A DNA stretch of 28,513 nucleotides from an uncultured Pseudomonadota bacterium (GCA_963770835.1 CAVYRH010000015.1:1-28513); one strand, 5' to 3'. Shown: positions 3,010 to 27,198, counted from the stretch's first letter. Notes: generated from the sequence alone by a model not told the origin. Program-made: numbers and translations.

Positions 3010-5937
3010 TTAGCGGATGACCAGAACCTTTAATATTTTAGAGGCCTTGACCGGGCCGGTGACTTGAACCCTTAAGTAGTAAAGCCCGCTGGCCACCGGT
3101 TTTTTCCAGGCATCTTCCATATCCCAAACCAGAACCGTGCTATTGCCACTAACCCCATTGGAAACATCGAGTATCTTGCGGAAAGCCGTCGTGAAAACAC
3201 TCCACTCGACGGTGGAACCAGCCGGTAACTGTATTTGTAAGGACACTGGACTCGGGCCTTGGACTGGGTTGGGATAAGGTGGGCCGATGCTGACCGTGGA
3301 AACGGTGGCCGAAGGACTGGGAGTCGCGGAGGCCGTGGGCGTGCCGGTGGGCTGGGGGGTCGGGCTCCAAGACGGGGTCGGCGTTTCCGTGCGGGTAGGG
3401 CTGTCCGAGGGCGACGGGGTGGGCGTAAAGGTCGCCGTGGGTGAGGAGGTGTCGGTAATCGTCGGCGTCAGGGTGGAGGTGGAGGTGGGAGTCCAAGTCG
3501 GAGTCAGCGTGGTGGAATTGGTGGCGGTTTCCGTCGCGGTGAAGGTGGCAGTCCAGCTTGCGGTGGGGGTCGGCGTAGCCGTCATCGAACTAGTGGGCGT
3601 GCCGGTGGGGGTGGAAGTGGCCGTCCAGGTGAGGGTGGCCGTCGGGCTCAAGGTCGCCGTATGGGTGGGTGTGAGAGTGGGGCTATTGGTGGCGGTCAGG
3701 GTGGGGGTGGATGTGGGAGTGGAAGTGTACCAGGTTCCCGTGGGGGTGGCGGTGGGCATGGCGCAGACGCCCGGGTAAAGCTGCAGGGAAGAAACCCCCT
3801 GGAAGGTGATCCCCGGCCCGGCCCAGTACAAAGCCGCCTCGGCGGCGGCAGTGTCCTGGTAGTAATCCATTTCGATGGGATAAAGGGCTCCCGCCTGCAT
3901 GGTGAAGGGGGTGGTGCCCGGCCAAAAGGTATCCGATTGGTCGGCCCAGTGGTTGACGATGGTGTAGGGCGTGGAAGTGGCGATGTCGGTCACGATCAGC
4001 CGACAGCCGTCGTCCGTCAAGGTGTAGAAAGTGTAGACACCCGTATTGGGCGGCTGTACGAACCCGGTGTATTCAATGGAAAATTTTGTCGATAAAACCC
4101 CGCAACCGGTGACCGTCAAGCCGCCACCCGAGGGAATGGCCCATTGGATCTGGGAAACGGGGCCCACCGCGCAGGGCGAGCCCATCAGGTTGTCGTTGGT
4201 GAAATACTGGGCGCAGAGGCCCGTGCCGGTCCCCACGGACGTGGGCGGCGGAGTGGCCGTGGGCGTGGCGCATGCGGGCAGGCCCGCCAAAACGTTGACC
4301 AGGCAGGCGGTCGGGGACCCCCAGCCCGTGACCAGGTCGTACCCAGGAACGGCGGGGTAAACACTGTTGGTGCCGCCGCCCACCACATCATGAAAAAGAT
4401 AATTCTGGTTCTGGCCGATGGTGTAAAGGGCGGGATTGGCGAAGCCCACGGGGGGCCGGGCATTGAGGGCGGCCTGCTGGTTGACGAGGGCCATGAAACC
4501 AGCCCATAGGGGCGCGGCGGCGCTCGTGCCGCTGGCGCCGTAAAGGGTAGTCGTCAGTTCTTCCGTGATGAGATCAGTGGCCACCATGGACACGTCCGGG
4601 ACATTGCGCCAGGCCGTGGAACCGCCGTTACCCCCGCTGGCGATGGGGTCCATGAGAACCCCGGCCTGGTAGGTGGGAATAGGCGTCAAGTTGCTGATGC
4701 CCCCGCTGCTCCAGAACCAGGGGCCTTCCCCGGCCCAGGGACCGCTCACCCCATTCGTCACCAGCACCGTCCCCCCCACGCTGGTGACGTAATTCTCGTT
4801 CAGGAATTGGCTCAGGCCGGTGGTATAGGCGCCCGAATCCCCGGCGGACTCGAAGAAGGATTGCCCCTGGGCCGCGAATTGGGCGAGGGAGTTCGTCACA
4901 TTCGTGTCCACGACCGTGGAGGCCGTGGTGAAGGAGAAATTGATCTGCCGGGGGAAGGACGCGGCGGGGGCGGCAGCGATGGCCGCGAAGATGGCATCAT
5001 TGTTACTGCCTTCGTAAACGCTGATATAGGCCTGGGGCGCCATACAAATGGCCATTTCAATATCCAGTTCCGCCTCGGATTCGTTGGCTCCGCCGTCGAG
5101 GGCCCCGCCGAAGCCTCCGCAGAGGACTCTGGAGGGGACGTTTGAAGGAAGACCCGCCATGGTCTCGTAGCCGGAGATGTCCGTGGCGCGGAAACCTGAA
5201 TTGGCAATGATGGCGATCGTCTGGCCCGCCCCTTCTAGGGAAATTCCCGGGATGTAGGCGTCCCTGAAATCAAACCCCTGGTACCAGCCGTTGATCCCCG
5301 AACCGGTCGAGGCAGGGGTGGGCCGGGGAGAAAGGCCGGGCTCCTTCAAGTAAGGCGCCGGCGGGGGGAGGGGGATTTTTTGCTGATGGGAAACGAACCG
5401 GTCGTAATTCTCCAGGCCTCCGATATGCCCCAAGGGAACATCCAGGTCGACCGAGGGCTCCCGGTCCGGCGCGTAGAAGAGGGTTCCGTCGGGCCGTCGG
5501 TGGCGGCTGAGGTTCACATGGAAAACCATCTGGATATCCGCGACCTTCCCGGTGACGGACAACAAGGCCCGGTTGGAATATAGGTGGGTGACGATTAAGC
5601 CGTTCGAAGTCACAAAGCGGATCAAAGCCTGGTAATCACTCGGGGCGGGCCCATAGCGGGCGGCGAATTCATCGGGCGTGAGAAAATGGCGGTAGAGGGG
5701 GTCCTGGGGATCGTAAAGGCGGTGGAGAAAATCCCTCAGGCCTTCGGTATTTCGCAAGGGCAGACCGATCGCGAGATCCAATCGCTCCTGCGGGTCCATG
5801 GCCTCCACCCAGGGGGCCGTGGCGATAGCCGCGGGAAGGTGGCCGGGCAATAGCTGGCGACCCACGCCTTGGGCCCAAGCGATTTGGGAAAATCCTATCC
5901 AGATGAGAAGACTTATAAATCGTTTCAAACGGTTCAT
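3010..5937 (-). CDS. Secreted S53 (sedolisin/kumamolisin-like) peptidase with pro-domain, PA14 domain, Thr/Pro-rich linker and C-terminal PYPNP sorting-like domain
   Basis: Signal peptide; pro-peptide [24 protein letters not shown]; catalytic motifs EAELD, SAGDSG and GTSAAAP; PA14-like [15 protein letters not shown]; long TPT repeats; C-terminal PYPNP...SGLYYLRV. Confidence 0.88.
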
Positions 5938-6043
5938 ACAGGAGGCTTCCAATCCGACTCGTTAAGATCAGATATAAAAACAGTTATTAGTATAGATAAC
6001 GGCTCAAACCGTTAAAACTTGATTGGGGCTGGTGTTTAAAGGC

Positions 6044-9932: not shown

Positions 9933-9960
9933 TGTCCACGACGGGGCCCCATCGCGGAAA
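9933..9960. repeat. 28-bp cassette-boundary site, copy 6 (degenerate)
   Basis: tgtccacgacg-gggccc-catcgcggaaa. Confidence 0.8.
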
Positions 9961-9991
9961 GCAAATTTAATCGGCCAAACCACGGCCCGCC

Positions 9992-11458
9992 TTAAGAAAA
10001 GGAGTCCAACACGAATTGTTTGAAAAGTTCCAATCCCTGGTCAGAACTCACGTTTCGGTAATAGCCAGCGGTCATCACACAAACCAGATCCAGGGAAGGC
10101 ACGACAATGATATATTGCCCACCTTTTCCATTGGCGTAATAGACGAAAGTCTCGCCCTTAGCGGAATGTAGATGCCGGGTCCACCACAAGTAGCCGTAAC
10201 CCTCGAAAGTCGGCCAGGGTTTGCCGTCGGCGGGAATGGGTTGGGGCCGGGTAGATTCCTCGACCCATTTCGATGACACCACTGTGCTTCCCTTCCACTT
10301 CCCATTGTCCAAATACAAAAGCCCCAGCTTGGCCATGTCTCGGGGCCTCAACCAGAAAGTGGAGCCAGCTTCAGTAGTTCCATCGGGGCCGGTCAACCAG
10401 GTGGGGGCCGGGATGTCCAGGGGATCGTAAAGGTATTTTTGGGCGAAATTCGGCAGGGGCATACCGCTTCGTTTAGCCAAGACAGCGCTCAGAATCGATA
10501 GACAGGAAGTGCAGTAGGCGTAATGCCGTCCGGGCTCGTGGGCCATGGGTTTGCTCAGGCAGAAATCCAGCCAATGGGGGGAGTTGAGCATGTCAATGGT
10601 GCAACCCGAGCCTCCTTCTTTACGGTAAGTGCCATCGTCGCAGTCGAACCCAGAGGTCATGGACAGGAGCGTTCCGAGGGTAATCCGGTTCTTCCGGTCA
10701 TCCCATCCGGCTTGGACACGGTAATCGGGGAAATAATCGAAGAGTTTTTTTCCTATCGTAACCAGGTCCTGATCTTGTGCGATCCCAAACAGAATGGAAA
10801 GAATCGACTTGCTGGTCGATTGCATTTGATGCTCATCACCTGGACCGTAACCATAAAAATACTCCTCCAGAACCAGCTTCCCATGCCGCAACAACAGGAT
10901 GCTGTGGGTGTTCGGGAATGTTCCCATGAGGACGGCATTGACCATGGCCCCAAGGGACGCCGGGTTCCCTCCGGTTTCAGCGAGGGAGGCTGTTTCCATT
11001 CCATCCCCCATGGGGGATGGCGCTTGGTAGTGATATTCCGTAACAGGCTTACCCTGGGCGTCCACCCGGGGAATGGAATAATCCATTCCCGGGCTTAATT
11101 CCAACGAAAGGGTTTTACCTGCAACCTGGGGAAAAAGAACCGGAATCTTGATCGTCCCCACCAAGCGGTGGAGCCCCTTCAGAACCAAGTTAATCCTCCC
11201 ATCTCCCTCAAATTCAGCTTGAAAACTTTTTCCCTTAACCCGGACATGGTCGAATGCCTTCCCGAAGTCTCCCCTTTCAATGTCGTCGTAGGTGGCTTCA
11301 AACTTTCCAGTGGCGGACTTCTGGATCACCACGACAAAATGGCATTTTCCACCATAATCGGCAGTACCGTGCCAGTTCCCGGCCAGACTTTCCGCAAAAC
11401 AAAAACTACTCGATAAGAAGAGTAGGAAAGTTAAACAATAGAGCTTGAGTTTAAACAT
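9992..11458 (-). CDS. Secreted serine hydrolase, beta-lactamase class C/PBP-like family
   Basis: SxxK (QSTSKS), LLSMTSG, PGRHYAY, LRPRDMAKLG, YGYLWW and GKGGQ motifs; signal peptide. The ATG is 5 nt after the last CRISPR repeat; an alternative GTG at 11470 lies inside the repeat. Confidence 0.88.
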   Translation of the reverse strand: MFKLKLYCLTFLLFLSSSFCFAESLAGNWHGTADYGGKCHFVVVIQKSATGKFEATYDDIERGDFGKAFDHVRVKGKSFQAEFEGDGRINLVLKGLHRLVGTIKIPVLFPQVAGKTLSLELSPGMDYSIPRVDAQGKPVTEYHYQAPSPMGDGMETASLAETGGNPASLGAMVNAVLMGTFPNTHSILLLRHGKLVLEEYFYGYGPGDEHQMQSTSKSILSILFGIAQDQDLVTIGKKLFDYFPDYRVQAGWDDRKNRITLGTLLSMTSGFDCDDGTYRKEGGSGCTIDMLNSPHWLDFCLSKPMAHEPGRHYAYCTSCLSILSAVLAKRSGMPLPNFAQKYLYDPLDIPAPTWLTGPDGTTEAGSTFWLRPRDMAKLGLLYLDNGKWKGSTVVSSKWVEESTRPQPIPADGKPWPTFEGYGYLWWTRHLHSAKGETFVYYANGKGGQYIIVVPSLDLVCVMTAGYYRNVSSDQGLELFKQFVLDSFS

Positions 11459-11526
11459 ATTGCGTTGCACACTATCCTTTTTGCGACAGGCATGTGCAGG
11501 TTTTCATAACGGTACCGTAAATTTAT

Positions 11527-12708
11527 TTAACGCTTTCCCTCAACTGGTTTTTCCCATTTCACAAGTCGGCCAAATCCAATGCCTTCCAGCTGATAAATGG
11601 TTCCCGTTTTCAGGTTTATGTCGTTCGGATAAAAATCGAATTTGGTCAGTAGCCGGAATTTTGAATTGAATTTATATAACCGATAAAGCACCCAAACAGG
11701 GTGTTCTCCTGCTAGTGGCACCAATTCATACACAGCATAGATGTCACCAAAACTATCTATATTCATAACATACTCAAAATCAAAACCATCTATTCTCCGA
11801 GGTAACCAGTTGCCATTTTCATCCATTTCGTATTGAGTCGCTCTGTTGTCCGTCAATTGGTATTTCAAATTCTCCAAAAATATTTTTTGGTCGATTTTGT
11901 TTTCATCCGCACTTGGAAGCCTATAAAATATTTTTCCAGTTTTTACCGCATAGATGACGCCATTAGAAAAGCGTAATACTCCATCTTTATAAAAATTCCA
12001 TTTTCGGAAATCCGGTCGACCCATTAAATTGCCATTAGAATCGTAAACCCAAGAAATGGATGGACCATAGTCACTGTAGATACAGACATCACCTTGCTCA
12101 TCTACCAACAAGGCGTTTTGTTGTTCGTTGTCTTTGGGGATTTCCTTAATAATTTTTCCACTCTTGTCGAATACCACCACAGCATGTTGGAAAGTCATAT
12201 ATATATTCTCTTGATCGTCCACTCGACAAACTGGTTTCGAAGCATCTCCATATTTTCCGCTTAACTCCGAGGGTATTGTAAACATCTCCGTCCGTTTATA
12301 TTTCTCCGGTACTTCGGCGCTCGACAATCCCTTTTCAATCCGTGGATGCTGTTTAAAAAAAGTTTCAGCCTTATCTGACAGTGAAACCTCGGCATTCACG
12401 GTTCCATTTTTTACTTTTAAATGATGAGGGACATGTTTAAGAGAGTTAGTTGGCGTAGGAGTTACGCTTAACTCAACTTTGGCTTGTTGAGTCGCTATGG
12501 CTGAAGGGCTTGATGGCGTGGCCTCTTTCCATCCAGGCAAACCCGCATAACTAACATTCATTGAAAGCATCACAACGAACAAAAGTGTCAGGCCAAAATT
12601 TATTTTTTTTTGTTTTAAAAATTTTAGAATTTGCCAAACCAAATCAACTGATCTCAAAAATGAACCCTTCGCCCGTGCTTTGTTCGAAGAATAATTCTCA
12701 TACTTCAT
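11527..12708 (-). CDS. Hypothetical membrane-anchored/secreted protein, possibly beta-propeller (NHL-like); fills giant spacer 3
   Basis: ATG 12708 with a GAGGTG RBS; hydrophobic segment; repeats such as VDDQENIY, VDEQGDVCI and IDSFGDIY. Confidence 0.75.
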   Translation of the reverse strand: MKYENYSSNKARAKGSFLRSVDLVWQILKFLKQKKINFGLTLLFVVMLSMNVSYAGLPGWKEATPSSPSAIATQQAKVELSVTPTPTNSLKHVPHHLKVKNGTVNAEVSLSDKAETFFKQHPRIEKGLSSAEVPEKYKRTEMFTIPSELSGKYGDASKPVCRVDDQENIYMTFQHAVVVFDKSGKIIKEIPKDNEQQNALLVDEQGDVCIYSDYGPSISWVYDSNGNLMGRPDFRKWNFYKDGVLRFSNGVIYAVKTGKIFYRLPSADENKIDQKIFLENLKYQLTDNRATQYEMDENGNWLPRRIDGFDFEYVMNIDSFGDIYAVYELVPLAGEHPVWVLYRLYKFNSKFRLLTKFDFYPNDINLKTGTIYQLEGIGFGRLVKWEKPVEGKR

Positions 12709-12772
12709 CTCGCACCTCGTGAAACAGGGTTGCACACTATCCTTTTTGCGACAGGCATGTGCAGGTTTTTAA

Positions 12773-13117
12773 CTATTCCAATAAAAGAATTTTAAGATTT
12801 TCCATCAACTTCGCCTTATGGATTGAGTTTAACTCCCCCAAATGCTTGACGAAGCGACGGTTATCAATGGCCCGGATTTGGTCGACCAAAATATCGGAAT
12901 CCTTTTTGAGCCCGCTGGCCTTGGGGGAAAGGTGAACCCTTAATATCTCCGATCCGTGAATCACGTTGGTGCTGATGGGGCAGACAATGGTGCTGGGGTG
13001 CAGGCTGTCGTTTAAGAGATTGGTTTGAAGGACGACGATAGGCCTCGTTTTGCCCGGTTCGGTTCCAAAGCGGGGGCTTAGATCGGCCAGATAAATATTA
13101 AATTTTCTGATTTTCAT
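12773..13117 (-). CDS. mazF: PemK/MazF family type II toxin
   Basis: IYLADLSPRFGTEPGKTRPIVVLQ...SDILVDQIRAIDNRR. Confidence 0.9.
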   Translation of the reverse strand: MKIRKFNIYLADLSPRFGTEPGKTRPIVVLQTNLLNDSLHPSTIVCPISTNVIHGSEILRVHLSPKASGLKKDSDILVDQIRAIDNRRFVKHLGELNSIHKAKLMENLKILLLE

Positions 13118-13353
13118 TCAATGGTTGCTTCTTCGAGCTTTTCCATCTCGCTCAGGATTTCCATGGAATTCTTACGGGTCAGCAGGGATTCCTTTTGCAG
13201 TTTTTGACGAAGCCCTTTGCGCCGGTTGAACGCGTTGTAAAAATCCAACGCCTCGTTGATGTAGGCGTTTCGGGGCATATGAAGCCGTTTGGTCTGGGCC
13301 TCCACGCCCTCGAAAATTTCTCCTTTGATTTTAAGCGACAGAACCTTGGTCAT
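13114..13353 (-). CDS. Ribbon-helix-helix antitoxin, translationally coupled to the MazF toxin
   Basis: 79 aa; KVLSLKI...MPRNAYINEALDFY RHH pattern; 4-nt overlap with the toxin gene. Confidence 0.8.
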   Translation of the reverse strand: MTKVLSLKIKGEIFEGVEAQTKRLHMPRNAYINEALDFYNAFNRRKGLRQKLQKESLLTRKNSMEILSEMEKLEEATIE

Positions 13354-13363
13354 TTTCAGCTCC

Positions 13364-13398
13364 TTTAAAGGTATATACTAATTGTATATACTTTTAAA
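13364..13398. promoter_or_regulatory. Inverted-repeat operator upstream of the mazEF-like operon
   Basis: TTTAAAGGTATATAC-TAATT-GTATATACTTTTAAA (15-bp arms, 1 mismatch). Confidence 0.6.
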
Positions 13399-13430
13399 AT
13401 AAAAAGAAATGACTTTTCGTTCAATCTATC

Positions 13431-13458
13431 TGTCCACGCCAGGTCCCCGTCGTGGACA
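13431..13458. repeat. 28-bp cassette-boundary site, copy 7 (inside giant spacer 2)
   Basis: tgtccacgcca-ggtccc-cgtcgtggaca. Confidence 0.88.
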
Positions 13459-13532
13459 ACCAGTTGCTATTTAAAGACTAAATTCATTTGATCAAAACCA
13501 AAATGTGCCTGTCTCAATAAAAATGGCCCTTT

Positions 13533-14681
13533 TTATATTTCTGACACTTTTTTGATCTTTCCAGTGTAACCATCGATGATCAATCTCAAAGACTTACCAA
13601 CTTTATTCGTAATATCTACTACCCAATCTCTTCCATCAATCTTTTCATCAAACGAGGAGTCTTCATTATTTTTTTTGTAATCGTAGGCGGTAAAAAAAGC
13701 CCGGTCCCGTGATATCATCCCGCCCTTCGCTCTGCTTTTATCCGCTTTATACCAATCAATCCACCGCTGGACGGGCGTTTTCATGTCGCAGATATGAATG
13801 ATGTCATTTTCATAATAATAATCGACCTTTTCTCCAAGGCTGGAATAATCACAACCCGTTAAGTTCTCCAAGGCAAAAGCAAATCCACCGTTTACAACGG
13901 AATTCGATATACCGTTGATTTGGAACCCATAATCTCCCCAATGTTTGGGAAGGAATAGTTCCGGCTCGACGACGACTTTGTCCTTTTTGGCCTCTAAAAT
14001 ATTTTTGATCAGTTGGATATTGAATTCTTCATTCTCATGAAAATGGCAATTCAAGGGCATTTCTTGGTACTCTTTGGGCAATTCTTGATGGACTGGTCTG
14101 TTTTGAAGGTTGTAACGTTGAAATGCCTTGTCAAAAGCCCAGGCGTTTGGCGTACCATTTTCTAGGACGGAAAATAATACTGGCACATCACTTGGCCAAG
14201 GATCACGGATAAGTAGGCTTAAGATGAGGTCTTGGGTTTCCGTATAGTGCAAGAGGGAAAGAAGGGCATCACGGGCTTTTGTATTTTCGAAATCCTCGTT
14301 AAATCGGCCTGCAATGCGGCTATCGATACCAATCAAATGGAGCGTAAATATGGCCCCCCTTCTCCCTTGGGCCGAGTGGGTCCCTTTAAATAAATCTAAT
14401 AAGTGCTGGATGGCTTTTTCTTTATAGGCAGCTATGGAATACATATCATCGGTATACCCAATCCAATAGGCCTTCCCTGTTTCCAATAAATCCCAATTGC
14501 CTTCTAATCTGTGAATTAATATTTTTAAGGGCGTCTTTTTATCTTGTGTGACTTTGGCGCCTCCGCCCTCGGCAGCACGCCAAGTGCTATCCCCATATGA
14601 ATCAACACCCAATTTATGTTGAGCGTTGGTAAACTGAGGCGCACTTAGAATTAAAAACCATAAAAAGATAATTTTTTTCAA
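13533..14681 (-). CDS. Secreted hypothetical protein with a possible C-terminal PepSY-like segment (cassette)
   Basis: Signal peptide MKKIIFLWFLILS; C-terminal WVVDI...LIIDGYTGKI. Confidence 0.75.
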   Translation of the reverse strand: MKKIIFLWFLILSAPQFTNAQHKLGVDSYGDSTWRAAEGGGAKVTQDKKTPLKILIHRLEGNWDLLETGKAYWIGYTDDMYSIAAYKEKAIQHLLDLFKGTHSAQGRRGAIFTLHLIGIDSRIAGRFNEDFENTKARDALLSLLHYTETQDLILSLLIRDPWPSDVPVLFSVLENGTPNAWAFDKAFQRYNLQNRPVHQELPKEYQEMPLNCHFHENEEFNIQLIKNILEAKKDKVVVEPELFLPKHWGDYGFQINGISNSVVNGGFAFALENLTGCDYSSLGEKVDYYYENDIIHICDMKTPVQRWIDWYKADKSRAKGGMISRDRAFFTAYDYKKNNEDSSFDEKIDGRDWVVDITNKVGKSLRLIIDGYTGKIKKVSEI

Positions 14682-14726
14682 TATGTGAGCAACTCCTGAT
14701 TCAGAATGGTCAATGAGTTAATCCAC

Positions 14727-14754
14727 TGTCCAATCCGGATCCCCGTCGTGGACA
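14727..14754. repeat. 28-bp cassette-boundary site, copy 8 (inside giant spacer 2)
   Basis: tgtccaatccg-gatccc-cgtcgtggaca. Confidence 0.85.
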
Positions 14755-14773
14755 CCTAAATCCGCCGCTTTGT

Positions 14774-15044
14774 TTATTCCACCCGCAAAAGGTAAAGGCT
14801 GATAAGTCCCAAAATGATCCCAACTACACGATGGGCGTTGATCGGTTCCTTAAAAAGAATAAACCCACCCAATATCGTCAACATGGTGCTCCCGATTAAA
14901 ACAAAGGAACCAGCCACCGAAAGCTGGCCTCCCCTTGAAAAAACGATAAAAAACCCAATCGAGCCCGCAGCGGCGCAAAAACCGGCGGCCAATGAAAAAG
15001 ACATTCCTAGGGCCGTCGCTGACTCTACCGACCCGTTAAACTTT
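14774..15044 (-). pseudogene. 5'-truncated EamA/DMT family transporter
   Basis: LGGFILFKEPINAHRVVGIILGLISLYLL is a DMT C-terminal signature. The frame stays open (KFNGSVESATALGMSF) right up to the CRISPR repeat at 15045, with no native N-terminus. Confidence 0.75.
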
Positions 15045-15081
15045 GTTGCACACTATCCTTTTTGCGACAGGCATGTGCAGG

Positions 15082-15754
15082 CTTGGACAGGGAACAGGCG
15101 GCCCTCCACGCCGCCGAGGATAATTTCGGCCCCTACCACCCCAATACCGTGCTCGTTCTCAACGACCTTGCCGCCATTTACTGGACGATGGGGCGTTATG
15201 AGGATTCGGAAGAAACTTATAAATGGGCCTTGGCGGTCCGCGAAAAAACATTGGGCAAGGACGACCTCCTGGTGGCCGACTCCTTAAACAACTTGGCCGC
15301 CCTTTATGAGGATTTGGGACGGGACCCGGAAGCCAAAATGGCCGAGGAAAGGGCTATTCGAATAGTCGAAAAGAAGGAGGGGGGTCTGACACCAGACTGT
15401 GGCCTTGAAATGCTTATCCTGGGAAAGATCCAAATAAACCTTCAGGATAATTTGGGAGCCGAAAAGACCCTCGACCAAGCCGTTTCTCTGGGCGCCAAAA
15501 CACAAAACAACAACCCGGGTCAATATTGTGAATCTTTAGTGGCCCTAGCCCAGGCCAACCAAGCCTCAGGCCATCTTCAAATTGCTGAAACCCATTTGAA
15601 ACAATACCTGGATTCTTGTGGGAAGCAATATAAGGCCGACAGTGTGGAAGTGGCCGATTCCCTGGAATGCTTGGGGGATTTTTACAAAGCGGAACACCTC
15701 AAGAAAAAGAGCCGGGAATATTACGAATCCGCCCTCAAGATTTACAGGAAATTT
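15082..15754 (+). pseudogene. Internal fragment of a tetratricopeptide-repeat (TPR_10/TPR_12-like) gene, equal to giant spacer 1
   Basis: FGPYHPNTVLVLNDLAAIY..GRYEDSEETYKWALAVREKTLGKDDLLVADSLNNLA. The frame is open across the whole spacer, with no native start or stop, and is cut at both ends by repeats. Confidence 0.85.
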
Positions 15755-15813
15755 GTTGCACACTATCCTTTTTGCGACAGGCATGTGCAGGAGCCTGCAA
15801 TTATTGGTGTTTT

Positions 15814-16149
15814 TCACCGTTCCGCCGAATTCGGCGTGATTTGGATAAGTTCAAACGCAGTTTCAATGTCGACATCATCTTTCTTAGAACTAAGCGTACC
15901 ACCGAAAACCGAATCTTCAAAGCACGACCGACAGAGCGTACTGATAAAAAACTTTTCGGTCTTCTTTGCGAAAGCCCCCTTGAATTTATTCTCGAGTTTT
16001 TCCCGTTCTTTTGAATACAATTTTCCGATATACATATTCCGGAAAACCGGCTTGAGACCATAATTCTTGCACCACAGAACCGCCTTGTCCCGATGCCGCC
16101 AGTCGCGCGTTTCCCACGATACTAGGGTGATGGCATTGAAATTGTTCAT
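15814..16149 (-). CDS. cas2: Divergent CRISPR-associated Cas2-like protein
   Basis: 111 aa, overlapping the cas1 stop by 4 nt. Ferredoxin-like pattern LVSWET..R..KAVLWCKNYGLKPVFRNMYIG..LCRSC. The canonical YDI motif is absent. Confidence 0.75.
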   Translation of the reverse strand: MNNFNAITLVSWETRDWRHRDKAVLWCKNYGLKPVFRNMYIGKLYSKEREKLENKFKGAFAKKTEKFFISTLCRSCFEDSVFGGTLSSKKDDVDIETAFELIQITPNSAER

Positions 16150-17156
16150 GATATCGAAAAAAGTTTTTCCGCACGAAACGGGTTGTACTTGTCCTCCTTT
16201 TCGACAAAGTGACGTGCCAACGCCCTAATCTGGTTATCTATGATCTGCTTAAGAGTATATTGTTTCCCCCGCCATGCCGTCGTTTCATTCAACCGCCTCA
16301 TGATCGCCCCCACCACGACGCTTTTTCCCTCAGGCGATAACAGATATTGCCCAACCGCGGTTTTTTCAAAATATTTCCGTTGGCTCAGTTTCTTTTCTAT
16401 GAAAAGCGGGAAAAGCACCGAGTCGACGATTGGTACGCGGAATTCTTCGACAAGATCGAGAACGAGGGCAGGCTTACCATAGCGTTCACTGTGGTAGAGG
16501 CCGAGATATGGATCAAGACCGACGTAAAGGCATGCCCGTTCGACTTCATTGTAAAGGATGCCGTAACCATAATTCAGTACGCTGTTAAACTGGTCCCTGC
16601 CTTGTGGTTTTCGGCCCGGGAATCTATAGAATTTTTTTAACCCGCTGAAATATTTGTCCGCGATGTATCCTTCCGTACCAAGGAGTTGCTCCTTGCCTTT
16701 CTCCGAACACGGGACATTGTCCAAGACATCAAAAAGGGTCTGCGCTTGTAAGAGTTCGGTCCCCACATCCTTTTTATATCGGTACGCGAGATATCGGAGT
16801 AGATCGAGCTGATTAGCGCATTTGCCCCGCACTAATTCTTTCGCGATTTTGAACGATCGCTCAAGCGAAGTTGACGCTTCCAGTTGCGCTTTACGAAGAC
16901 TCGCCAGCCCTTTTGGTTCGCTTGAAAATAGTCTTCCGATGGGCTTGCCAAAAGAACCGAGATAGACGATATCAACATCGTGCTCAATCGCGAGCTGAAC
17001 CGCGTGAGTCGTGAGCGAGGCCGGCCGCAGTATGACTATTTTCTCCAGTCTATGGATGGGGTATTCTTTTTTCTCTTTAACTTTCGGAAAAGAAAGGACG
17101 ATGCGCTCGCCATTTACGCCGATCTTGGTACCGTAAGTATCAATAAGCAAGTCCAT
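16146..17156 (-). CDS. cas1: CRISPR-associated endonuclease/integrase Cas1
   Basis: LLGTEG, DQFNSVLNYGYGILY, GLDPYLGLYH and LVLDLVEEFR; the catalytic E/H/D-E residues are intact. Start MDLLID at 17156 after a GGGGG RBS (17186 is also possible). Confidence 0.95.
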   Translation of the reverse strand: MDLLIDTYGTKIGVNGERIVLSFPKVKEKKEYPIHRLEKIVILRPASLTTHAVQLAIEHDVDIVYLGSFGKPIGRLFSSEPKGLASLRKAQLEASTSLERSFKIAKELVRGKCANQLDLLRYLAYRYKKDVGTELLQAQTLFDVLDNVPCSEKGKEQLLGTEGYIADKYFSGLKKFYRFPGRKPQGRDQFNSVLNYGYGILYNEVERACLYVGLDPYLGLYHSERYGKPALVLDLVEEFRVPIVDSVLFPLFIEKKLSQRKYFEKTAVGQYLLSPEGKSVVVGAIMRRLNETTAWRGKQYTLKQIIDNQIRALARHFVEKEDKYNPFRAEKLFSIS

Positions 17157-17230
17157 GTGGTCTGCCCCCCAAATTTTGTAAACCATCTTTATGCTGAAAG
17201 TGCCTGAATACCATTATCCATTATTTTCGT

Positions 17231-17258
17231 TGTTCACGAAGGGTCCCCGTCGTGGACA
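17231..17258. repeat. 28-bp cassette-boundary site, copy 9 (directly upstream of cas1)
   Basis: tgttcacgaag-ggtccc-cgtcgtggaca. Confidence 0.88.
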
Positions 17259-21268: not shown

Positions 21269-21333
21269 GTCCACAGTTGGCAGTTGACGGCTGACAGAGA
21301 AACCCGAAAACTTGGCGGTATTTTATAGCCAAG
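21269..21333. repeat. 65-bp non-coding direct repeat, copy A
   Basis: gtccacagttggcagttgacggctgacagagaaacccgaaaacttggcggtattttatagccaag; 3 mismatches to 23748-23812. Confidence 0.85.
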
Positions 21334-21429: not shown

Positions 21430-22452
21430 TCACCAGGCCGTCGCCGCCACCGCGCCGTTAAAAGCAACCGCCGCAAACACCCCATTCCCATAGGCCACGG
21501 ATTCCCAGTTCTGTGAATTGGGCAGGCTGCGCCCCGTCCAATTGATCCCGTCCGGGGATGTCGCCGCCACCGCGCTGGGGCCGTCGGCAACTGCCGTAAA
21601 ATAGCCATTCCCGTAGGTCACTGACTGCCAGTCCTGTACGCTGGGGAGGGTTTGGGCCGTCCAGGTGATCCCATCCGGGGATGTCGCCGCCACCGAGCTC
21701 AAAAAAGCAACCGCCACAAATACCCCATTCCCATAGGCCACTGACTCCCATACCCTTACGCTGGGGAGGGTTTGGGCCGTCCAGGTGATCCCGTCCGGGG
21801 ATGTCGCCGCCACCGTATCCGGGCCACCGAGGCTGCTCGTGCTCACCGCCACAAAAACCCCATTCCCGTAGGCCACGGAGTTCCAATCCTGCGAACTGGG
21901 GAGGGTGCGGGACGTCCAGGTGACCCCGTCCGGGGAGGACGCCGCCACATTGTTACTCTGTGTAACCGTCACAAACACCCCATTGAGGCCGTAGGTCACG
22001 GAACACCAGACCTGTATGCTGGGGAGGGTTTGGGCCGTCCAGGTGATCCCATCCGGGGATGTCGCCGCCACCGAGCTGGGGCCGCCGGCAACCGCCACAA
22101 AAACCCCATTCCCATAGGCCACGGAATACCAACTCTGCGAACTGGGGAGGGTGCGGGCCGTCCAGGTGACCCCGTCCGGGGATGTCGCCGCCACATTGCT
22201 ACTCCGGGCAACCGCCACGAACACCCCATTCCCGTAAGTCACTGATGACCATTCCTGTGAACTGGGGAGGGCGCGTGAGGTCCATGTCGCTCCCGGCCAA
22301 GGGGTGATCGTGGGCGAAGGGGTAATGGTTGCCGTTGCCGCCACCTGCACCACCGTCACCGGCCCCAGGGCCGTAGGGCCCAGGTTTTTCCCGCAGGCCA
22401 GCGGTAAGAGGGCGAGCCAGGCCAAAATCAAAACAGCCAAGAACTTATTCAT
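21430..22452 (-). CDS. Lipoprotein with tandem Asp-box/BNR-like beta-propeller repeats (paralog 2)
   Basis: ATG 22452 with an AAGGAGG RBS; lipobox LPLAC; ~7 repeats of WTA.TLPS.Q.W.SV.YGNGVFVAVA..AATSPDG. Confidence 0.85.
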   Translation of the reverse strand: MNKFLAVLILAWLALLPLACGKNLGPTALGPVTVVQVAATATITPSPTITPWPGATWTSRALPSSQEWSSVTYGNGVFVAVARSSNVAATSPDGVTWTARTLPSSQSWYSVAYGNGVFVAVAGGPSSVAATSPDGITWTAQTLPSIQVWCSVTYGLNGVFVTVTQSNNVAASSPDGVTWTSRTLPSSQDWNSVAYGNGVFVAVSTSSLGGPDTVAATSPDGITWTAQTLPSVRVWESVAYGNGVFVAVAFLSSVAATSPDGITWTAQTLPSVQDWQSVTYGNGYFTAVADGPSAVAATSPDGINWTGRSLPNSQNWESVAYGNGVFAAVAFNGAVAATAW

Positions 22453-22504
22453 GCTCCACTCCTCCTTAATATCGGCTGAAGGCAAGTCCGCGCGAACAAC
22501 CGGA

Positions 22505-23506
22505 TTACCAGGATGTCGCCGCCACCGCGCTTCCACTTGGCCCACTCGCAAGCGCCACAAACCAACCATTCCCGTAAGCCAACGATTGCCAATACTGCGA
22601 ACTGGGGAGGGCGCGGGCCGTCCAATCAATCCCGTTCGGTGAGGTCGCCGCCACCGCGCTGGGCCCAGCCGCAACTGCCACAAACACGCCGTTCCCGTAG
22701 GTCACGGATTGCCAGTACTGTGAACTGGGGAGGCTACAGGCCGTCCAATTGATCCCGTCCGGGGATGTCGCCGCTACGGCGCTGGGTCCAGTGGCAATCG
22801 CCACAAACACGCCATTCCCGTAGGTCACTGAAATCAAATTCTGTGAACTGGGGAGGGTGCGGGCCGTCCAGGTGATCCCGTCCGGCGACGTCGCCGCCGC
22901 CGTACCACCCGTAGCAACCGCCGCAAACACGCCATTCCCGTAGGCCACTGACTGCCAGGGACGTGAACTGGGAAGGGTTTGGGCCGTCCAGGTGACCCCG
23001 TCCGGCGAGGTCGCCGCCACCGTGCTCAGTTCAGCAACCGCCACAAACAGTCCATCCGCGCTGGTCACGCATATCCAATCCTGTGAGCTGGGAAGGGTTT
23101 GTTGCGTCCAATGGATCCCGTCCGGTGATGTCGCCGCCACCGCGCTCCCAAAAGCAACCGCCACAAACTCCCCATTCCCGTAGGTCACGGAGTACCATTC
23201 CTGTGTACTGGGGAGGGTTTGGGCCGTCCAGGTGACCCCGTCCGGCGAGGTCGCCGCCGCCGTACCAAAAGAAACCGCCACAAACACACCATTCCCGTAG
23301 GCCACTGAATTCCAAGCATGTGTACTGGGGAGGGTTTGGGCCGTCCAGGTCTGCCCGGGTACGGGGGTGATGGTCGGGCTCGCCGTGATCGTGGAGGTGG
23401 GCGCCAACACCGTCACCGGCCCCAGGGCCGCGGGGCTCATGTTTTTCCCGCAGGCCAGCGGCAGCGACGCGGCAAAGATGATTAAAACCGCCGATATTTT
23501 TTGCAT
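22505..23506 (-). CDS. Lipoprotein with tandem Asp-box/BNR-like beta-propeller repeats (paralog 1)
   Basis: Lipobox LPLAC; same repeat unit as 21430-22452. Confidence 0.85.
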   Translation of the reverse strand: MQKISAVLIIFAASLPLACGKNMSPAALGPVTVLAPTSTITASPTITPVPGQTWTAQTLPSTHAWNSVAYGNGVFVAVSFGTAAATSPDGVTWTAQTLPSTQEWYSVTYGNGEFVAVAFGSAVAATSPDGIHWTQQTLPSSQDWICVTSADGLFVAVAELSTVAATSPDGVTWTAQTLPSSRPWQSVAYGNGVFAAVATGGTAAATSPDGITWTARTLPSSQNLISVTYGNGVFVAIATGPSAVAATSPDGINWTACSLPSSQYWQSVTYGNGVFVAVAAGPSAVAATSPNGIDWTARALPSSQYWQSLAYGNGWFVALASGPSGSAVAATSW

Positions 23507-26450: not shown

Positions 26451-26849
26451 TTAAAAGATTTGAACTTCCTTGATAACCCTGGCCATGTGGTTGAAATCCG
26501 CGTCATTATGCAAAAGCTGTAGCTTGTGCTCAATCGCAACCTGGCAGATCAGGCAGTCTATGGAACTGCGGGGCGTAACACCTTTTTCCCGGCAGCGGAA
26601 ATAAATCCGCGCCGCTTGGGCGTAGGATTCCAGGCCCCGCGTAACTCCATAAATGATTTGGGTATCCAGGTATTCCCGGAGATTCCGGAAATCTTTCTCG
26701 GAGGAAGCGCCCTGGAGGATTTCCTGATAGACGTGTTCGGTGATCCCATAGGGAACCCTGCGATCCAAAATCCCCTCAAACCGGTCCACTGCGGCGTTCC
26801 GCCGTTCCCTTAGGAAATCAATAAGAACCGACGTATCCACGAGGATCAA
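26451..26849 (-). CDS. vapC: PIN-domain VapC toxin
   Basis: MILVDTSVLIDF..EILQG..SSIDCLI..LLHNDADF. Confidence 0.92.
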   Translation of the reverse strand: MILVDTSVLIDFLRERRNAAVDRFEGILDRRVPYGITEHVYQEILQGASSEKDFRNLREYLDTQIIYGVTRGLESYAQAARIYFRCREKGVTPRSSIDCLICQVAIEHKLQLLHNDADFNHMARVIKEVQIF

Positions 26850-27052
26850 GAGCCGTGACTTACACGAAGCATTTTGTGGTCGTACCCTTTTCGAAAATGG
26901 ACCTTGCCCTTCAGGTCCCGCAAATCGCGCCGGCCATGATGGGCCACGAATTCCCGCAAGGCGACCTCAAAAAGTTCTTTTTTTGTTTTAGCCCCTGAAA
27001 AGCGAAGGGCTTTTTGAACCAAGTCATCATCCAACACAACATTCGTGCGCAT
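26846..27052 (-). CDS. vapB: VapB family antitoxin
   Basis: MRTNVVLDDDLVQKALRFSGAKTKKELFEVALREFV; AGGAGG RBS; overlaps vapC. An ATACAC-N7-GTGTAT inverted repeat lies upstream (27069-27087). Confidence 0.9.
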   Translation of the reverse strand: MRTNVVLDDDLVQKALRFSGAKTKKELFEVALREFVAHHGRRDLRDLKGKVHFRKGYDHKMLRVSHGS

Positions 27053-27198
27053 TTTTATACACCTCCTTATACACCATCCTAGTGTATCGAAAGCCCGCCC
27101 GTCAACGAACGTTGTCCGTTCCATCGGGGCTTAATCATTTCACCCTGAGCGGCTAACAGGCCCTGGTAGCCCAAAGTCAAATAATCAGTACCACTGAT

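Follow-up and report, generated by a model that had tools for sequence, protein, structure and literature searches.

The 28,513-nucleotide contig CAVYRH010000015.1 (assembly GCA_963770835.1), deposited from an uncultured Pseudomonadota bacterium and referred to here as the window, contains a cas1 gene, a divergent cas2 gene and a 22-bp leader that precede four copies of a 37-bp repeat. As judged from its sequence, the locus is an effector-less module derived from a CRISPR system, in which stretches of cleanly cut DNA of nearly any length lie between the repeats. The evidence comprises the gene order, the Cas1 residues, the Cas2 fold, exact insert junctions, donor sequences that run on past these junctions, a spacer range of 30 bp to about 26 kb, no visible protospacer-adjacent motif (PAM) and one weak base preference common to both insert ends. 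Cas1-Cas2 likely inserts a single long DNA by both of its ends at the repeat and duplicates the repeat in the process.

The window is the entire contig C15 of a 4.58-Mb, 96%-complete genome assembly, G000. The bacterium, from soil, likely belongs to candidate phylum FCPU426. The module and its array are arranged as follows.

16146..17186, minus strand: cas1, 346 aa (TIGR00287, E 1.7e-74; PF01867, E 3e-68)
15814..16149, minus strand: predicted divergent cas2, 111 aa, overlapping the cas1 stop codon (alignment, PF09827 in relatives, Foldseek)
15792..15813, minus strand: 22-bp leader; the leader-repeat junction is common to all four module copies of G000 and to related loci
15755..15791, minus strand: repeat 1, leader-proximal, 37 bp, exact
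15082..15754, plus strand: spacer 1, 673 bp, from the interior of a TPR-protein gene that runs opposite to the array (TPR families; frame open at both ends)
15045..15081, minus strand: repeat 2, exact
12766..15044, minus strand: spacer 2, 2279 bp, piece of a cassette array with 28-bp sites (sites, domain matches, homologues on contigs C11 and C8)
12773..13353, minus strand: toxin-antitoxin pair of spacer 2 (MazF/PemK-family toxin at 12773-13117, PF02452, E 1e-23)
12729..12765, minus strand: repeat 3, exact
11501..12728, minus strand: spacer 3, 1228 bp, a single, apparently whole open reading frame (ORF) with no assigned function (weak homologue on contig C9, 24% identity)
11464..11500, minus strand: repeat 4, exact

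The cas2 stop codon is followed after 22 bp by repeat 1, and the repeat-to-repeat intervals, counted from the cas side, are 673, 2279 and 1228 bp. All four repeats are 100% identical, and the expectation for an exact 37-mer by chance in the G000 genome is about 5e-16. Read in the cas orientation, the repeat has the 3' end GCAAC and folds into a terminal hairpin (z = -3.09), which 0 of 200 shuffled sequences matched in stability. An earlier note on this DNA had described the repeats, their spacing and their CRISPR-like features, and had reported that no effector, cas4 or cas6 gene is present; each of these points was borne out, the last by a profile scan of 27 window ORFs. Its description of the window was accurate as far as it went; it overlooked a second array made of 28-bp sites (17 copies, two of them in spacer 2 and one upstream of cas1) and 23 further repeats elsewhere in the genome. 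A promoter scan returned nine promoter-like sites against 10.4 expected, and thus no leader promoter is claimed.

The Cas1 protein passes the cut-offs of TIGR00287 and PF01867 and lies below every subtype cut-off among its NCBIfam matches. Its putative catalytic residues E172, H232 and E247, which presumably have the roles of the Cas1 active-site residues with which they align, are kept in 115, 116 and 116, respectively, of the 116 sequences aligned. The nearest solved Cas1 structures are 4N06 (Archaeoglobus-type) and 7CR6 (type I-D); PDB 6OPM (431 aa), which we take to be a casposase, scored below both. Close Cas1 homologues are numerous in the protein set searched. No relatives were found on viral contigs, and the 158 plasmid records that match are all below 60% identity, with at most 34% to annotated plasmid-borne Cas1 among the matches listed. 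The 111-aa ORF had no Pfam match at E<=0.01. PF09827 (Cas2) is matched weakly by 12 of its 14 aligned homologues, with the window protein itself below the cut-off. Its structural model (pLDDT 78.9) retrieved Cas2 entries at all ten of the top Foldseek ranks, the first two titled SSO1404 and SSO8090, which we take to be Cas2 proteins. The first strand carries Trp in place of the Tyr-Asp of SSO1404, and the aligned homologues share a conserved CxSC motif and a C-terminal tail. The model and these matches identify the ORF as a predicted divergent Cas2.

As the earlier note had proposed, the Cas1 clade was searched for together with repeats of unlimited spacing, and the layout was also found in loci of candidate phylum FCPU426 and of Patescibacteria. 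The loci compared were 15 from a genome collection and 18 from metagenomes. Where the sequence extends far enough, a 37-bp repeat of the same family usually lies 0-25 bp behind cas2, and its sequence drifts with that of Cas1; loci with such a repeat directly behind cas2 have Cas1 proteins 62-100% identical. Exceptions to the layout are L012, with a broken cas1 and repeats 2.3 kb away, and L014, with a truncated cas1; most of the short metagenome loci showed no match to the repeat pattern. The repeat variant of the window is present in 7 of 99 genomes of the phylum, all of one family. Records of the candidate phyla radiation (CPR) type from other submitters show the same layout, and one 876-kb record titled 'chromosome: 1' (L006) carries eight repeats at intervals of 140-4007 bp.

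From these loci 81 intervals between neighbouring same-strand repeats were compiled, excluding lone repeats, inverted pairs and gaps above 30 kb. They range from 30 to 26,097 bp with a median of 1589 bp and no preference for multiples of three. Two are below 60 bp, 14 are 60-499 bp, 16 are 0.5-1 kb, 26 are 1-3 kb, 16 are 3-10 kb and seven exceed 10 kb; in all, 79 of 81 are at least 60 bp and 49 of 81 at least 1 kb. Homologous loci that always have spacers of ordinary size had been named in the earlier note as a finding contrary to its proposal; spacers of that size are confined to two, of 30 and 38 bp in one array. Their existence means that the length ruler is relaxed, not reset to kilobases.

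In a FastTree phylogeny of 89 Cas1 sequences, the window protein falls in a 27-member clade on a long stem (support 1.0) that contains all the long-spacer loci included, and the FCPU426 proteins nest among those of Patescibacteria type. Deep nodes of the tree, from which casposase and Cas14 references were absent, are weak, and it therefore fixes neither the nearest CRISPR subtype nor the direction of transfer between phyla. Ordinary arrays with a 66-74 bp period accompany four of the six Cas1 loci examined outside the clade. A 400-genome sample of the phylum of genome G099 contained no further clade members.

The ends of the inserts share a weak base preference. Counted inward from the repeat, the 210 ends (116 left, 94 right) seldom have G at position 3 (11/210) or C at position 4 (21/210) and often have T at position 5 (97/210); over the first six bases GC content is 33-36%, compared with 45-47% deeper in the insert. 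Left and reverse-complemented right profiles are correlated at r = 0.87, against a mean of 0.0 and a maximum of 0.57 in 361 offset controls and 0.03 without complementing. Restricting the count to closed spacers leaves the bias in place, both for FCPU426 (108 ends) and for G000 alone (40 ends); among the 26 ends from CPR-type loci, only T5 and T1 reach significance. A two-fold symmetric preference of this kind is expected from one enzyme acting at both ends, and its source could be Cas1 or a nuclease that generates the ends.

Donor sequences indicate how the inserts were cut. After four duplicate loci were dropped, 195 distinct non-leader junctions were available, and at 26 of these a donor matching at 88% or more runs on past the junction without a repeat. 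Mapped junctions overlap the repeat end by 0-2 bp. No PAM or other shared motif was seen outside 11 left and 15 right donor junctions, a small sample inspected by eye. Two spacers were mapped completely: a 559-bp spacer of genome G048 is an internal stretch (559/559) of a transposase gene on contig C17 of G000, presumably IS1380-like, and an 885-bp spacer of G000 is the inverted inner part (885/885) of a 971-bp spacer of G054. Both are linear donor pieces with nothing extra at either end. Three other G000 spacers overlap one source with different ends.

Within the window, a repeat-free donor of spacer 1 was found at 100% identity in public runs of two studies, over 496 bp in run X4 (0 differences) and over 85 bp in run X1, and contigs from both run on past position 15082 without a repeat. 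Spacer 2 contains, in order, the 3' part of an EamA-family gene, a 28-bp site, a 382-aa ORF, a second site and the toxin-antitoxin pair, in which a 79-aa ORF upstream of the toxin gene is likely the antitoxin by position. The spacer starts inside the EamA-like gene, and a longer, 144-aa EamA-like cassette on C11 passes the junction at 88-90%; it ends 7 bp past the toxin gene, and C8 carries a toxin-antitoxin cassette that is 79% homologous. At repeats with mapped donors the left and right flanks come from different sources, and the idea that the repeat is a miniature element dropped into genes was rejected.

The cargo is varied. Insertion sequence (IS) copies are cut internally at the repeat, IS and intron-like elements lie inside some long spacers, and RHS-like pieces occur elsewhere. 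Some spacers match the cas1 and IS copies of G000 itself at 100%. No terminal inverted repeats were found in 67 closed spacers, whose scores equalled those of mismatched pairs. Genes run along the array in 36 of 58 spacers, against it in 12 and in both directions in seven; three have no ORF. An open frame of at least 130 aa enters the left end in 19 of the 58 and the right end in 14. Two large blocks were also seen in G000: 7.8 kb at C3:385301-393105, encoding a 753-aa protein and its neighbours, which we take to be a nitric-oxide-reductase cluster, and 7.5 kb at C16:21562-29110, whose genes, presumably tgt and queA, have second copies on C5 at 84% and 77% identity. The spacers of both blocks are flanked by variant-repeat pairs typical of other genera, and variant repeats of G000 flank spacers as pairs in 2/2 cases. 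A shared gene block with repeat junctions occurs in three genomes (G000:C3:383301; G048:C3:410875; G049:C72:952-8198), which may reflect a hotspot, transfer or mis-binning; the 7.2-kb spacer of G049 is 99.96% identical over 4.9 kb to array-adjacent DNA of G048, and it is the sole copy found in G049 (86% complete). Genes starting MPRxKRIHYEGAVYHVT, presumably RAYT-like HUH transposases, recur within or beside the arrays of L003, L014, L016 and L020. A dispersed repeat of about 125 bp at G000:C3:382155-382280 has dozens of copies here and in relatives of the same genus.

These data bear on the idea that spacers entered at ordinary length and grew afterwards, either through homologous recombination with matching donor DNA or because mobile elements inserted into them. 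Such a course is among those proposed for SiL-E1, a pseudo-spacer of about 2 kb in Sulfolobus (PMC3718332), and the 30- and 38-bp spacers and the IS and intron-like elements of some long spacers would fit it. The two fully mapped spacers with no additions at their ends, internally cut IS copies, the lack of terminal inverted repeats, an identical base preference at both ends and the small number of short spacers (2/81) all speak against it. Insertion of a mobile element into a short spacer had been raised in the earlier note as a way in which its proposal could fail, and donors that cross the junctions argue otherwise. Expansion is very improbable, and direct integration of long DNA by Cas1-Cas2 accounts for these features better.

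The second repeated element is a cassette system. The whole window consists of unrelated, co-oriented genes between 28-bp palindromes (13-2-13, with a nearly invariant central GA). The 17 copies in the window begin at 1016, 2019, 2910, 6438, 7347, 9933, 13431, 14727, 17231, 19324, 20033, 21004, 23939, 25414, 26405, 27199 and 27864, and G000 holds 85 at up to six mismatches. Those that bound or enter the array, with the gene region between the array and its first downstream site, are listed below.

17231..17258, minus strand: site lying upstream of cas1 and bounding the mobile module on its left (identity of module copies starts here)
14727..14754, minus strand: palindromic cassette site in spacer 2 (site search)
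13431..13458, minus strand: palindromic cassette site in spacer 2 (site search)
9961..11463, minus strand: beta-lactamase-family (PF00144) gene region past the last repeat, ending at a 28-bp site
9933..9960, minus strand: first site downstream of the array (site search)

Sites of this kind occur in 27 of 31 genomes of the family, and the system is therefore independent of the Cas module. One window cassette recurs from site to site at three other places among different neighbours. Identity among the module copies on C15, C3 and C16 begins at the site upstream of cas1, where the cas-proximal arm is identical in 5/5 site-bearing copies and the distal arm and flank vary. Sequence comparison thus indicates that the cas module moves as a passenger cassette of the 28-bp-site system in this lineage. 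Loci L002, L003 and L014 lack the site, and so the module's entry into the cassette system would be secondary. The only match to the resolvase (serine recombinase) family in G000, at C17:12078-12905, ends 14 bp from a 28-bp site and is a candidate for the enzyme of the system. Captured 28-bp sites would let the cassette system excise pieces of the array, which would explain clusters without a leader and the varied DNA after the last repeat. The PF00144 gene, with a likely ATG 5 bp from repeat 4, is possibly an older insert shortened in this way. At one site where inversion was considered as the origin of leader-less arrays, the genes that are neighbours in the same genus lie on another G000 contig beside a 28-bp site; this is compatible with rearrangement or mis-joining.

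Other features of the cassette system were noted. A transposase, presumably IS110-like, and a presumed element of about 820 bp lie repeatedly directly behind 28-bp sites (G000 C3:45300, 81893; C8:165044; window 1016; C3:38284, 39416; C11:109897, 111606). One window cassette (3010-5952) encodes a 980-aa protease of kumamolisin type, which has a long Pro/Thr linker and a PA14 domain. Positions 21430-23506 hold two paralogues that likely encode lipoproteins and consist of repeats of about 40 aa; copies of an 81-bp direct repeat lie on either side, at 21269 and 23748. Toxin-antitoxin pairs among the cassettes are of VapBC type (26451-27124) and of MazF/PemK type (12773-13353). In the CPR-type locus L013 (4383-8070), another repeated site of about 22-32 bp (four copies, 0.8-1.6 kb apart) lies upstream of cas1, and that module may ride in a different cassette array.

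The 37-bp repeat might in turn be the recombination site or miniature element of another enzyme, such as the recombinase of the 28-bp system, with cas1-cas2 as a bystander. The window is, after all, a cassette array with its own site; most repeat clusters of FCPU426 lie away from any cas1, and genome G044 (89% complete) has two repeats and no Cas1 match. Against this, the two elements are distributed differently in the family: the 28-bp site is in 27/31 genomes and the 37-bp repeat in 7/31, six of which have a Cas1 match. The CPR-type loci carry the repeat without the 28-bp site. The insert ends are arbitrary instead of site-bounded, and the differing flanks at mapped-donor junctions are unlike those of a miniature element. 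A bystander role for cas1-cas2 is quite improbable, and the repeat is better read as the target of Cas1-Cas2.

The G000 genome contains 27 copies of the repeat, 23 of them outside the window, in four clusters (two on C3, one each on C15 and C16). The cas1-cas2-leader unit is present as three whole copies (>99.7% identical) and one 5'-truncated piece between two repeats. The latter spacer, C3:60758-61838, equals the genome's own cas1 (aa 104-346), cas2 and leader at 100% identity, and by this match is a captured piece of another module copy. DNA after repeat 1 differs among the module copies and in two public runs, DNA beyond the last repeat is different in every copy, and no strain series sharing older spacers was found. 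Two inverted repeat pairs were also observed, one at G000:C3:400723-400905, with 109 bp between and joined through the GCAAC ends, and one at G049:C170:52252/52433.

No ordinary CRISPR array was found in G000 by array search. The genome had no match for RAMP, Cas4, Cas6, Cas12f/TnpB (two families) or Cas9 and none for Cas3 above the cut-off; PolB (PF00136) had no match, and the best IntI score was 44.6 bits against a TIGR02249 cut-off of 265, the Cas9 and IntI searches being ones in which no control exceeded the cut-off. Neither Cas6 nor Cas12f/TnpB was found in any of nine carrier genomes. These results weigh against the notion of an immune or regulatory array whose long spacers are transcribed and used by an unrecognised or in-trans effector. 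In its favour, a significant RNA hairpin is kept on the array strand, the inserts include IS and mobile-element DNA, and some relatives hold other Cas1 loci, one with an ordinary array. Against it, palindromic repeats are also read by Cas1-Cas2 on DNA, and spacers with 100% matches to the genome's own cas1 and IS copies would mean self-targeting. An immune or regulatory use of the array is very improbable. Among public runs listed, no RNA run contained the window stretch.

Repeat-induced misassembly, against which the earlier note had cautioned, is scarcely credible: G000 is a repeat-rich metagenome assembly and no compared public contig bridges a spacer-repeat-spacer junction of the window, but mis-joins, though they could shuffle spacers, cannot give rise to repeats with hundreds of non-repeat bases behind them, the same layout is seen in independent assemblies (seven FCPU426-family genomes and CPR-type records, among them L006), and contigs from public runs join the repeat to at least 200 other bases.

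In the mechanism proposed here, Cas1-Cas2 would be the integrating enzyme. Each Cas1 active site would grip one frayed, AT-rich 3' end, and the intervening DNA would form a loop, since the divergent Cas2 would have ceased to confine one short duplex. Both ends of one linear DNA would be joined to the two sides of the repeat, and the repeat would be duplicated as in ordinary spacer acquisition. Substrates would be whatever linear DNA is at hand, including IS and cassette DNA, pieces of other arrays and chromosomal DNA of related species. New inserts would enter at the leader-proximal repeat. Selection would retain some inserts, preferably those oriented with the array, and the locus would serve as a channel of horizontal gene capture and not as an immune memory. 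Selective retention is the weakest step, with about an even chance of being correct. The earlier note had likewise proposed an integrase with a lost or relaxed ruler that inserts long DNA and builds a gene library; all genomic tests agree with the first part, and the second is not demonstrated by arrays in which many inserts are fragments, self-captures or housekeeping copies. Whole operons and co-orientation favour a gene library; it is disfavoured by fragments, by self-captures and by the broken copy of cas1. The balance between a benefit of this kind to the host and a tolerated by-product of a mobile module is roughly level.

Several observations count against this interpretation as a whole or in part. 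At 169 of 195 junctions no qualifying donor was present among the DNA compared. One of the three full cas1 copies (C3:47239-48279) contains a stop codon through a single base change, and this copy heads the longest cluster, of 11 repeats. The two longest intervals, of 24.7 and 26.1 kb, may have arisen in more than one event each, and some events count as two intervals because captured repeats are nested within them. Polarity at the leader end is suggested solely by first spacers that differ in every module copy; several clusters have no leader or cas genes and start or end in non-repeat DNA, and simple addition at the leader end is therefore inadequate. Many inserts look useless, being gene fragments, IS fragments, a fragment of the module's own cas1 or second copies of housekeeping genes. 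Spacers of one array are not independent, and their co-orientation may reflect the direction of replication. Contigs of the four public runs compared bridged none of the spacer-repeat-spacer junctions of the window, the parts left uncovered being uninformative, and run X1 may share the window's sampling campaign. The Cas12a search was uninformative (0 control genomes matched), and Cas13, Cas7, Cas5 and Cas10 were not searched by name.

In current understanding, Cas1-Cas2 is an integrase by which the length of spacers is fixed. Hickman et al. pointed out that the reason why transposon-type and spacer-type integration should be mutually exclusive is unclear, as is whether they are so at all (PMC6977970). 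A clade with a Cas2 and a repeat that takes 30 bp to tens of kilobases makes this question testable with two small genes and a 59-bp target. If the interpretation is true, there would be an added route of horizontal transfer, needing neither homology nor special ends and likely missed by CRISPR finders, that here carried entire operons and housekeeping segments from one species to another. Should the module prove active in a laboratory host, it would offer a compact site-specific integrase for large cargo and a molecular recorder for long fragments. The broadest formulation has perhaps one chance in two: a third use of the Cas1 fold, in which two genes write linear DNA of any kind, tens of kilobases at most, into a 37-bp site independently of PAM and length, with homology-independent gene capture between species, re-capture of arrays and spread between phyla as a mobile cassette. 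A literature search that covered little of the subscription journals and supplements turned up no description of the Cas1 clade and only isolated long pseudo-spacers in Sulfolobus.

The locus resembles CRISPR adaptation in its cas1-cas2-leader-repeat order, its 37-bp palindromic repeat, the whole repeat flanking each insert, the Cas1 active-site residues and the Cas2 fold. It differs in its spacers of 30 bp to about 26 kb, compared with about 20-50 bp, and in its divergent Cas2, leaders of at most 22 bp, lack of a visible PAM and lack of any Cas4, Cas6 or effector found. By the usual definition of CRISPR-Cas, cas1 and cas2 are present beside a leader and direct repeats, short regular spacers are absent, and no effector or crRNA-processing gene was found among the families tested in this 96%-complete genome, Cas13 being unsearched. 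Integrons and clusters of attC sites lacking integrases (CALINs) are alike in being arrays of accessory genes, mostly co-oriented, beside an integrase; here the enzyme is Cas1 and not IntI, the repeats are identical 37-bp units and not attC (as judged without an attC covariance-model search), and the cargo is cut arbitrarily, often within genes, instead of arriving as pre-formed cassettes. Casposons share a Cas1-family enzyme, site-specific insertion of kilobases and target duplication; they carry PolB and terminal inverted repeats, duplicate 14-15 bp of target and mobilise nothing but themselves (PMC6977970). In contrast, the present system has terminal inverted repeats in 0/67 spacers and no PolB match in the genome; its Cas1 has a Cas2 partner, the duplication is of 37 bp and the cargo is arbitrary. 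The long pseudo-spacers of Sulfolobus, of about 2 kb (SiL-E1; PMC3718332) and 899 bp (S. solfataricus locus F; PMC4390879), likewise place kilobase foreign DNA between perfect repeats with no unaccounted bases; they are single accidents in ordinary immune arrays, whereas here long inserts are the rule across a dedicated, effector-less Cas1 clade. The chemistry is a variant of CRISPR adaptation, and the system fails a defining test of each known kind with which it was compared.

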